From: Vicinamibacterales bacterium
Lineage (GTDB): Bacteria > Acidobacteriota > Vicinamibacteria > Vicinamibacterales > UBA2999
Length of the DNA: 64,000 bases
Reading direction: 5' to 3'
NCBI GenBank assembly: GCA_036004405.1
Contig: DASYRM010000113.1
Coordinates: 60,111-124,110, forward strand
In this document: one piece after another, positions 59,134 to 64,000 of the stretch
Layout: the number at the start of each line of letters is the position of its first letter
Numbering within the stretch: the first letter of the stretch is position 1
Notes under the pieces: generated by a model
Told to the model about the DNA's origin: nothing
The model's database searches: none
The model's input: only the letters and a program-made list of their open reading frames with translations
Made by a program: the position numbers and the translations under genes

Positions 59134-59382
59134 CTATCGCAGATGCCGATTGGCGAAGGCAACACCTGATCCGGACTTCAGATATCGCTCAAAGGCAACG
59201 GCCCGCTGTTCATCCCCGAACTCGATGACCAGGTCGATGGACCAGGGTCGGTACTTGGCCGTGTGGATACGACTGCCGGAGTTGTGCTCCGAGTATCGTG
59301 TCGAAACGTTCGAGGTCAGGCCAGTGTAGTACCGCGGTGGAACGGCGCCGTTCTTGAGCACGTAGACAAAGCGCTTCGACAT
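59134..59382 (-). CDS. GIY-YIG nuclease family protein (YhbQ/UPF0213-like)
   Basis: 82 aa. MSKRFVYVLKNGAVPPRYYTGLTSNVSTRYSEHNSG...PWSIDLVIEFGDEQRAVAFERYLKSGSG. The 173-aa ORF extension upstream is translation of repeat DNA. Confidence 0.75.
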   Translation of the reverse strand: MSKRFVYVLKNGAVPPRYYTGLTSNVSTRYSEHNSGSRIHTAKYRPWSIDLVIEFGDEQRAVAFERYLKSGSGVAFANRHLR

Positions 59383-59499
59383 CCGCGGTGCTTCAGCAAG
59401 CAGGTTGCCGCGTCGAATCAGGGCAGGATCTTCATGAGTGGGCGATCGGGTCGCAGTCTTATGAACAAAGAGCAGGTACCGAAGTTCCAAGGACTGGGA

Positions 59500-59690
59500 G
59501 GTCCACCTTCGCTCGCCTGAAGACACCGCAAGCTTCGGTGGACATCCTTCGCCTGTTGGTGGTGTGAGCTGGCTGGCTTGCCAACCATAGCTCGCTGCGA
59601 GCGTCTCGGCAGTCCACCTTCGCTCGTTTGAATTCTTGCGAGCTACGGTGGACAACCTTCGCGTGAGTCATGAGCGAAGGTTGGTACCCC
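59500..59690. repeat. Two tandem about 55-nt imperfect palindromic elements (GTCCACCTTCGCTCG...CGGTGGACAxCCTTCGC) 110 nt apart, plus a third partial inverted copy
   Basis: Copy 1 about 59500-59553. Copy 2 about 59610-59663 (about 85% identical). Partial reverse copy GAGCGAAGGTTGGTAC at about 59672. Lies in the lower-GC segment upstream of the GIY-YIG gene. Not CRISPR-like (2 copies, palindromic). Confidence 0.6.
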
Positions 59691-59850: not shown

Positions 59851-60105
59851 ATGGCTCTCAACATCCGCAATGCAGAAGCCGAGCGGCTCGCAGCCGAGTT
59901 GGCCAGACAGACCGGCGAGACCAAGACCGAAGCGGTGACCAAGGCTCTGCGCGATCGGCTCGCGCGTGTGCGGCGCGAGCGCTCCCGTCGGCGACTGGCG
60001 GATGAACTCGAGGCCATTGCGGAACACTGCGCCAAGCTGCCCGTCCTCGACGCCAGATCCGCAGACGACATTCTCGGCTACGACGAGCACGGTCTGCCGC
60101 GCTAG
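59851..60105 (+). CDS. vapB: Type II antitoxin VapB (Rv0623/PSK-like)
   Basis: 84 aa from ATG 59851. [39 protein letters not shown].... Confidence 0.8.
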
Positions 60106-60267
60106 TCCCCTGGAAGCGTGATGACTCACCTGATTCCCGGGCGGGGCATCCCGCCTGGCTGCGTTGCTCATCGCTTACTTATGCCCAATAAGCTCGCTCT
60201 TCGCGCCTTGCCAGCCGGGCGCCGCGCTCCGGGACTTAGGCAAGTCATCACGCTTCCAGGGGACTAG
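60102..60267. mobile_element. MITE-like element inserted exactly between vapB stop and vapC start. 25-bp perfect terminal inverted repeats CTAGTCCCCTGGAAGCGTGATGACT / AGTCATCACGCTTCCAGGGGACTAG
   Basis: Left TIR 60102-60126 contains the vapB TAG. Right TIR 60243-60267 abuts the vapC ATG. About 116-bp non-coding core. CTAG on both ends could be a target-site duplication. Confidence 0.6.
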
Positions 60268-60669
60268 ATGGTCATCGACACGTCCGCGCTCGTTGCCATC
60301 CTGCAACGTGAGCCCGAACGGCGTGCCTTCATCGAAGCCATCGAAGCCGCTGATGCTCGCCTGATGTCTATCGCTACCTCTGTCGAGATCTCCATCGTCA
60401 TCGAAGCGCGACACGGCGCCGAAGGACTGCGCGACCTCGATCACTTTATCGGTCGGGCAGGCATCGAGCTCGTACCCGTTGACGCCGAACACGGCAAAGT
60501 GGCGTGCAGCGCGTTCATCCGATTTGGAAAGGGACGGCATCGCGCAGGCTTGAATTACGGCGACTGCTTCTCGTACGCACTCGCGATCTCGACGGGAGAG
60601 CCGCTCCTCTTCAAAGGGGACGATTTCGTCCACACCGACGTTACGATCGTGGATCTGGGCTCGCGCTGA
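60268..60669 (+). CDS. vapC: Type II toxin VapC (PIN-domain ribonuclease)
   Basis: 133 aa. MVIDTSALVAIL N-terminus with the first acidic residue, later conserved Asp/Glu positions, C-terminal GDDF. Confidence 0.85.
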   Translation: MVIDTSALVAILQREPERRAFIEAIEAADARLMSIATSVEISIVIEARHGAEGLRDLDHFIGRAGIELVPVDAEHGKVACSAFIRFGKGRHRAGLNYGDCFSYALAISTGEPLLFKGDDFVHTDVTIVDLGSR

Positions 60670-63804: not shown

Positions 63805-63990
63805 TCAGTCGATCCAGTCGTCTGTCGCGGGAGAGGCGCGCGACGGGGCTGGCGCCGGCACCTCGGTCGGGAGGTGGAGGTGCGAGAGGATTCGTGCCGT
63901 GGCCGCCGATGCGTCGAGCATGGCGACAAGGCGGAGCCGCCCGCCGCACCCGGGGCACGCAAGCACGTCGATGGCGAAGACCCGGCGCAT
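63805..63990 (-). other. Short ORF with CPGCGG zinc-ribbon-like motif (MRRVFAIDVLACPGCGGRLRLVAML...). Possible C-terminal tail of a transposase-like gene running off the window edge
   Basis: Motif reminiscent of transposase zinc-ribbon tails. Window ends 10 nt upstream, so it cannot be assessed. Low confidence. Confidence 0.2.
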
Positions 63991-64000
63991 CAGGTCGGCC

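Follow-up and report, generated by a model that had tools for sequence, protein, structure and literature searches.

A probable MITE insertion in the CTAG where vapB ends and vapC begins, and the dispersed repeat family to which it belongs

The stretch of DNA analyzed here (64,000 nucleotides from a Vicinamibacterales bacterium, referred to below as the window) contains a locus with the architecture of a type II VapBC operon, i.e., adjacent genes for a PF07704 antitoxin and a PIN-domain toxin, both domains having been found. Both genes are intact and closely related to those of other loci (about 83–91% DNA identity by BLAST between vapB and its counterparts at loci without an insert, and 94% amino-acid identity between the vapC product and full-length homologues), and they are separated by a gap of 162 nt between the vapB stop and the vapC start. 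As proposed from the sequence alone, this gap is bounded by a perfect (25 of 25) inverted repeat splitting vapB from vapC, whose outer CTAGs coincide on the left with the vapB stop (TAG at 60103–60105, inside the left CTAG) and on the right abut the vapC start (Table 1). The 25-mer involved, CTAGTCCCCTGGAAGCGTGATGACT, occurs exactly twice in the window, once on each strand and with 0 mismatches, while no further match was found there at up to 3 mismatches and none was found in 100 shuffles; a single copy of the element is present within the 64 kb. The window is part of a 228-kb contig of JGI metagenome 3300036852, and the best named relative of its HemL protein (79%) belongs to an "Acidobacteria bacterium" MAG.

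Table 1. Features of the vapBC locus and of the insert (window coordinates)
Feature	Position	Strand	Basis and remarks
vapB antitoxin gene (84 aa), intact	59851..60105	+	ORF; Pfam PF07704, residues 1-83 vs. profile 1-82/82, E = 9e-30 (full-length match)
Left copy of the duplicated target, CTAG	60102..60105	.	One copy in empty sites, two here; these 4 nt are the exact overlap of the BLAST segments; what was duplicated is either TA (60103-60104) or all of CTAG
Left terminal inverted repeat, 25 nt including CTAG	60102..60126	+	Exact repeat search
Element body	60106..60263	+	43 complete copies with different flanks; 57-copy alignment
49-codon open frame within the element, probably no gene	60118..60267	+	ORF list; no Pfam match
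Right terminal inverted repeat (25 nt with its CTAG), complementary to the left one at every position	60243..60267	-	Exact repeat search
Right copy of the duplicated target, CTAG	60264..60267	.	vapC ATG directly after
vapC PIN-domain toxin gene (133 aa), intact	60268..60669	+	ORF; PF01850, E = 2.8e-18

Depending on how the target duplication is counted, the element is 158 bp long (duplication of CTAG) or 160 bp long (duplication of TA; positions 60105–60264, termini G...C). Its palindromic character extends inward of the 25-bp repeat into arms of 58 nt that are 79% complementary, and the 181-nt stretch around it folds into a very stable hairpin (−113.2 kcal/mol vs. −68 ± 4.5 for shuffled sequences, z = −10). 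The only ORF of the element has 49 codons, shares its reading frame with the vapB stop and is terminated by the TAG abutting the vapC ATG; it was rejected as a gene (no family match, no orientation bias of the copies, openness near the chance level) and probably is not one. The element has no transposase gene, and the window yielded no match to an Rfam family. The surroundings of vapBC are rich in mobile elements: an IS91-family transposase gene (Zn_Tnp_IS91 and Y2_Tnp domains; window ~63805–64000, L001:8538-9968, minus strand) begins some 3 kb beyond the vapC gene and extends past the window end. Upstream, between a small GIY-YIG gene (59134–59400, minus strand) and vapB, lie two direct repeats of about 55 nt (59494–59665; 110–111 nt apart), each with an inverted pair GTCCACC...GGTGGAC, which among the 137 loci compared were found in the window's contig only.

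VapC has numerous close relatives. Comparison with eight homologous vapBC loci (L125, L126, L127, L128, L129, L130, L136 and L137; VapC proteins 89–94% identical and DNA 84–91% identical to the window) established the uninterrupted state of this junction. The expectation that vapB and vapC normally overlap or abut is borne out in all eight, where the junction (...CGCTAGATGGTC...) contains one CTAG and no spacer, the stop and start abutting as CGCTAGATG or, in a longer reading, ...CTGCCGCGCTAGATGGTCATCGAC... (GCGGTAG in L126). The window junction differs from this empty-site sequence by exactly 162 additional bp and a second CTAG; likewise, BLAST segments against the homologous loci stop at window position 60105 and resume at 60264, the single CTAG of the subject accounting for an overlap of 4 nt. 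One CTAG in the empty sites vs. two in the window demonstrates a target-site duplication, one of the signs that the sequence-only reading had suggested looking for. The eight empty sites span at least five different gene contexts, and their similarity to the window is limited to the vapBC module, so that they represent homologous modules in other contexts rather than strict orthologues. The closest homologue with an apparent spacer (P0001, VapC 94% identical) has a 133-nt gap after vapB; among the homologues whose junction DNA was examined, the abutment of vapB and vapC is broken only in the window. One of the uninterrupted loci (L137, 94% VapC identity) has, at the end of its contig and some 80 nt past vapC, a diverged MITE-like core (78% over 74 nt, L137:1025-1098), which possibly represents a related subfamily.

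The element belongs to a dispersed repeat family. A 20-mer of its repeat, TCCCCTGGAAGCGTGATGAC, has matches in 101 metagenome stretches and 22 stretches of species-representative genomes, with about 166 distinct 20-nt flanks around the family copies. Most of the genome matches (20 of 22) fall in MAGs of Acidobacteriota or Vicinamibacterales, and in each of two single MAGs at least four contigs carry a copy. The remaining two come, with the binning taken as given, from a Chloroflexia MAG (L105) and a Gemmatimonadaceae MAG (L114) and could reflect either binning errors or a horizontal spread of the element. No family match was found in a scan of viral contigs or in a BLAST search of plasmids, and a literature search returned no published description of the family. 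We recovered 43 complete copies of 156–159 bp with different flanks, as well as shorter and longer variants; an alignment of 57 full-length copies has a mean column identity of 90%, with the terminal inverted repeats kept throughout, and the copies are 83–99% identical to the consensus (median 92.8%; 95.8% for the window copy). Among the variants are copies of about 203 bp with a ~45-bp insertion after position ~51 (L077, L086, L105, L115) and shortened copies of 56–98 bp that consist of little beyond the two terminal repeats (L014, L113, L123, L124). In another locus (L072:512-525) a further copy begins, with TCCCCTGGCC, immediately after the right CTAG of a complete one, an arrangement that points to a tandem insertion into the duplicated target. 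In the metagenome collection the distance between a match and the contig end is in many cases about 100 nt, which is what a repeat that interrupts assembly should produce.

The hairpin is a property of the whole family and not of the window copy alone. In the 57 copies RNAalifold predicts 41 pairs, 9 of them with compensatory double changes (at pair 30–143, for example, 29 copies have CG, 22 have AU and 4 have GC), and 97.7% of the cells are paired, vs. 28–49% when the partner is slid by 1–3 columns; each of five pairing measures was matched by at most 1 of 500 shuffles. Thus, the whole-element hairpin has been kept through compensatory changes. Selection for a hairpin of RNA or single-strand DNA, the fitting of both arms to one transposase binding site, and template-switch correction would all leave this pattern and cannot be separated by it. 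Template-switch correction is typical of quasi-palindromes.

Taken together, these observations are best explained by a MITE that was inserted, probably by machinery acting in trans, into the CTAG at the vapB-stop/vapC-start junction, a reading to which we assign a probability of about 0.85; its mobilization in trans is assumed by analogy. Small size, the lack of a transposase gene, terminal inverted repeats, a target duplication and occurrence at many unrelated sites are all found in this family, as they are in prokaryotic MITEs. Indeed, the original suggestion of a small non-autonomous transposable element is supported on each of its main points (other copies, empty sites, CTAG duplication), and the opposite picture, in which no other copies exist and all orthologues carry the spacer, is excluded.

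The position of the insertion follows a pattern that is seen across the family. The tetranucleotide CTAG is strongly depleted both in the window (17 occurrences, where dinucleotide shuffles predict ~73) and in 715 kb of related loci (L002-L124; 313 vs. ~2201 expected), where about half of the 313 occurrences flank MITE copies. A MITE-flanking CTAG is the stop of a convincing ORF reading into the element in 57 of 147 cases (39%), compared to 63 of 353 (18%) for other CTAGs of the same DNA, and where both sides of a copy could be tested, contact with one or more stop codons was found in about two thirds of the copies; in eight, the duplicated CTAG provides the ends of two convergent genes. The orientation of the copies relative to the gene whose stop is abutted has no bias (18 vs. 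26). The family accumulates at gene ends because these GC-rich genomes have very few CTAGs, many of which are TAG stops; insertions at such positions would do little harm, each of them regenerating the stop codon. What sets the vapB/vapC junction apart is that a start codon, too, lay directly against the CTAG. A second stop/ATG junction occupied by a copy (L081) is not that of a toxin-antitoxin pair, and an automated test for genes starting beside copies was too noisy for use, having missed vapC itself.

The flanks of the copies also bear on the mode of insertion. Element ends abut CTAG in 162 of 187 cases; directly next to the element, G is found at every one of the 187 ends, whereas the outermost position shows 8 deviations. 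Atypical flanks (ATAG/CTAG, TTAG/CTAG, TTAG/CTAA) form direct repeats in none of the cases: ATAG occurs in L041 and L042, and the pair in L065 (TTAG...CTAA) is inverted rather than direct, as fits a TTAA target with its TA duplicated. A fixed inner G combined with a variable outer base favors a TA duplication with fixed G...C termini, since a variable 4-bp direct repeat would vary at both positions, and mutational bias cannot account for the difference, both positions being G:C pairs. At CTAG targets themselves duplications of TA and of CTAG give an identical sequence, because CTAG is palindromic, and the argument accordingly rests on the few atypical flanks. Judged from these sequences, it is most probably the central TA that is duplicated, the termini being 5'-G...C-3' and CTAG the preferred context. 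An IS630-like mode of insertion, for which we see somewhat better than even chances, would conform to the preference of IS630 for TA within 5'-CTAG-3' (Tenzen & Ohtsubo 1991, as cited in PMC2170065).

Among the fetched loci, no autonomous element with terminal repeats matching those of the MITE was found. In two of them (L037 and L017) MITE repeats bound units of 1.86 kb that encode an IS110-family transposase (PF01548 and PF02371). The IS110-family element itself is about 1.69 kb long (approximately L037:1341-3025 and L017:180-1870) and splits both MITE copies at one internal site, ...CCTTGCCAGC/CGGGCGCC... (also written CCTTGCCAGC/CGGGCG...; the slash marks the point of interruption); interruption at the same internal point in both loci means a nested insertion, and IS110 was rejected as the parent. 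The MITE thus represents a fixed, sequence-specific landing site for an IS110-family element. An IS630-family IS of 1197 bp (L131:1022-2218, also L132:3-608), located in a fetched MAG contig of unconfirmed taxonomy, has repeats beginning CTAGTGTCCTGAC... and termini CTAG/TGTCCTGAC. Its ends (TA/GTGTCCTG) resemble those of the MITE (TA/GTCCCCTG) weakly, in 6 of 8 bases; since the repeats differ, it was rejected as the parent as well. More generally, the fetched loci contained no match to the MITE repeats, within 6 mismatches of 21, in an element bearing a DDE_3 (IS630-type) transposase. An IS5-family element (DUF772, DDE_Tnp_1 and DDE_Tnp_1_6; L132:~620-1857, L133, L134 and L135, contigs that were recovered via the transposase of L050) has CTAG-flanked 26-bp repeats, CAGGGTGCTGAAAAAGTGACTCGCGG, without significant similarity to the MITE, and was likewise rejected; several of its copies are frameshifted. 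In L131 and L132 the IS630-family IS abuts the IS5-family element via a single shared CTAG, which suggests that the CTAG left by one insertion was reused as a target by the next.

A single contig (L050) links a MITE-type end to a transposase gene, and that gene is of the IS5 family, not of the IS630 family. There the terminal 48 bp of the MITE are joined to the 3' end of the IS5-family transposase gene (L050:9754-10428), replacing the usual terminal 41 nt of the IS, and the contig ends within the IS. The distance from a conserved motif to the CTAG is 40 nt in L050 vs. 41 nt in L132, and relatives of the L050 element (protein 92–94% identical) end in a different 26-bp repeat, likewise flanked by CTAG. 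L050 could be a hybrid autonomous element or a product of rearrangement or deletion.

As to the consequences for vapBC, a transposase supplied in trans would have inserted the element into the CTAG where the vapB TAG met the vapC ATG, and the target duplication would have regenerated stop and start signals with neither gene damaged. On the vapBC mRNA the resulting hairpin of about 70 bp would remove the direct coupling of termination and reinitiation and bury the vapC initiation region, with VapC expected to be lowered relative to VapB; the insertion may have been tolerated because a lower toxin level would be harmless. In a thermodynamic model, the cost of opening the region from −15 to +10 around the vapC AUG is 36.4 kcal/mol for the filled site vs. 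15.5 kcal/mol for the reconstructed empty site, and with a ribosome footprint on the vapB stop these costs drop to 12.9 and 0 kcal/mol, respectively. The base of the hairpin pairs the vapB stop codon with the 4 nt before the vapC AUG, so that a ribosome terminating on vapB would open the stem base and partly expose the start, and some coupling may survive. The end of the element also provides an SD-like AGGGGA 4 nt before the vapC ATG. The insert amounts to 54 codons and keeps the frame; its TAG-to-TAG frame, the only open one being that which contains the flanking TAG stops, has no internal stop in 51 of 57 copies. About one in three GC-rich frames would be open by chance, and the lack of orientation bias argues against selection for a bridging frame.

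The suggestion that the insert could uncouple toxin from antitoxin translation has partial support: the stop/start abutment is lost and independent vapC initiation is strongly blocked in the model, the effect on translation itself being a prediction from that modelling. The companion suggestion of a new promoter for vapC found no support in a consensus scan, which detected within the element neither a sigma-70-like promoter nor an intrinsic terminator; by eye one can pick out a weak TTGCTC-N17-AATAAG, which fails the criteria of the scan. The most economical reading of the modelled effects is a tolerated, recent insertion that would lower or gate VapC synthesis.

Several other explanations of the spacer have to be weighed against a MITE insertion. 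Its very stable fold, with pairing kept by compensatory changes, would also suit a conserved regulatory hairpin native to the vapBC operon and not mobile at all; this is refuted by the absence of the spacer from all eight homologous loci, by more than 100 copies beside unrelated genes and by the duplicated CTAG that flanks the spacer, and its probability is close to nil. The extragenic, hairpin-forming and multi-copy nature of the repeat also recalls REP/BIME palindromes moved by a RAYT (Y1), or a palindrome-associated element of the IS200/IS605 type. The element measures 158–160 bp, ends in inverted repeats of 25 bp and has duplicated its target, features absent from those classes, which makes this origin very improbable, and no RAYT or TnpA(Y1) gene was noticed in an unsystematic look at the fetched loci; REP/BIME proper (palindromes of 20–40 bp with a GTAG/CGTC head and no target duplication) was rejected, the head being absent from the element. 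A different kind of alternative accepts the insertion and holds that it has been co-opted, with the hairpin (as an RNase III-type site or a ribosome-gated stem) or the 49-codon frame setting the VapB:VapC ratio and being kept by selection. The geometry of the junction is consistent with such a role, namely the pairing between the vapB stop and the 4 nt ahead of the vapC AUG, an opening cost higher by 21 kcal/mol that in the model is largely relieved by a ribosome terminating on vapB, the in-frame 162-nt insert whose open frame ends on the TAG abutting the vapC ATG, and the SD-like motif contributed by the element end; in addition, hairpins that Correia elements form in mRNAs are documented to be cut by RNase III (PMC10969869). 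The copies, however, have no orientation bias relative to the upstream gene, an open frame is within chance expectation, and the closest vapBC relatives function without the insert, all of which makes co-option quite unlikely. Its generalization to the family, in which the elements would be mobile "stop-codon riders" whose selected hairpin ties translation of the downstream cistron to ribosome traffic or RNase cleavage, here retuning VapB:VapC, is a speculative and improbable idea; if true, it would mean that MITEs land on TAG stops, including operon stop/start junctions, and regenerate the stop.

The remaining alternative concerns not the nature of the element but its source, i.e., the same MITE derived from, or mobilized by, the IS5 group, with a 4-bp CTAG (Py-T-A-Pu) duplication and a body of 158 bp. 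Duplication of a Py-T-A-Pu tetranucleotide, most often CTAG, is documented for IS5 (PMC5493358), the CTAG flanks and the occasional TTAG flanks are compatible with it, IS5-family elements with 26-bp repeats and CTAG flanks exist in L132-L135, and the 48-bp MITE-type end in L050 occupies the exact place of the right repeat of such an IS. Against this parentage, the inner base never varies in 187 ends while the outer one varies 8 times, which is impossible for a variable 4-bp direct repeat; the ATAG flanks are not Py-T-A-Pu and the L065 pair is inverted; and the ends of the IS5-family element are not significantly similar to the MITE. L050, in turn, is a single contig ending inside the IS, its transposase is 94% identical to that of copies with different ends, and a rearrangement there is as likely as a true parent. 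We therefore regard an IS5-group source as possible but doubtful.

Overall, a MITE insertion into the CTAG between vapB and vapC places a repeat family that is, as far as the literature search shows, undescribed within a well-known class, in an abundant uncultured soil lineage, with an unusual insertion position. The family is of practical relevance as a repeat that breaks assemblies, many contigs ending about 100 nt into a copy, and as a marker of CTAG sites at gene ends. The pair of vapBC loci with and without a 162-nt junction hairpin offers a clean natural experiment on the role of translational coupling in toxin-antitoxin balance; apart from its value as a test pair, the vapBC case is an ordinary MITE insertion.

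Known systems that come close include the IS630-family IS and their MITEs (Tc1/mariner superfamily), which share terminal inverted repeats with the present element and, in the account given by PMC2170065, insert into TA, preferably within 5'-CTAG-3'; the IS630-family IS among the fetched contigs also has CTAG-flanked termini. The differences are that the similarity of termini is confined to 6 of 8 bases, that no IS630-family element with the repeats of the MITE was found among these loci, and that the TA duplication of the present MITE is deduced from flank statistics. The IS5 group and IS5-derived MITEs share the CTAG (Py-T-A-Pu) target preference (PMC5493358), and here too related CTAG-flanked elements occur on fetched contigs, with L050 joining a MITE-type end to an IS5-family transposase tail. 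The flank asymmetry, however, speaks against a 4-bp direct repeat, and there is no significant similarity between the repeats of the MITE and those of the IS5-family element found. Correia elements (CREE) of Neisseria, of about 100–160 bp with ~25-bp terminal repeats and a TA duplication, are alike in architecture only, come from a different phylum and differ in that no promoter-like site was detected in the present element. The ERIC and RPE palindromic repeats are, like the present family, imperfect palindromes over their whole length, whereas the latter has a defined CTAG target and its duplication. RPE elements insert in frame, while the only open frame of the present element contains the flanking TAG stops, which would preclude an in-frame insertion into a protein. 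With respect to possible effects on neighboring genes, Correia elements are often co-transcribed with their neighbors, their hairpins being cleaved by RNase III with altered expression as a result, and ERIC elements located, as many copies of the present family are, at the 3' ends of genes affect transcript levels (PMC10969869).
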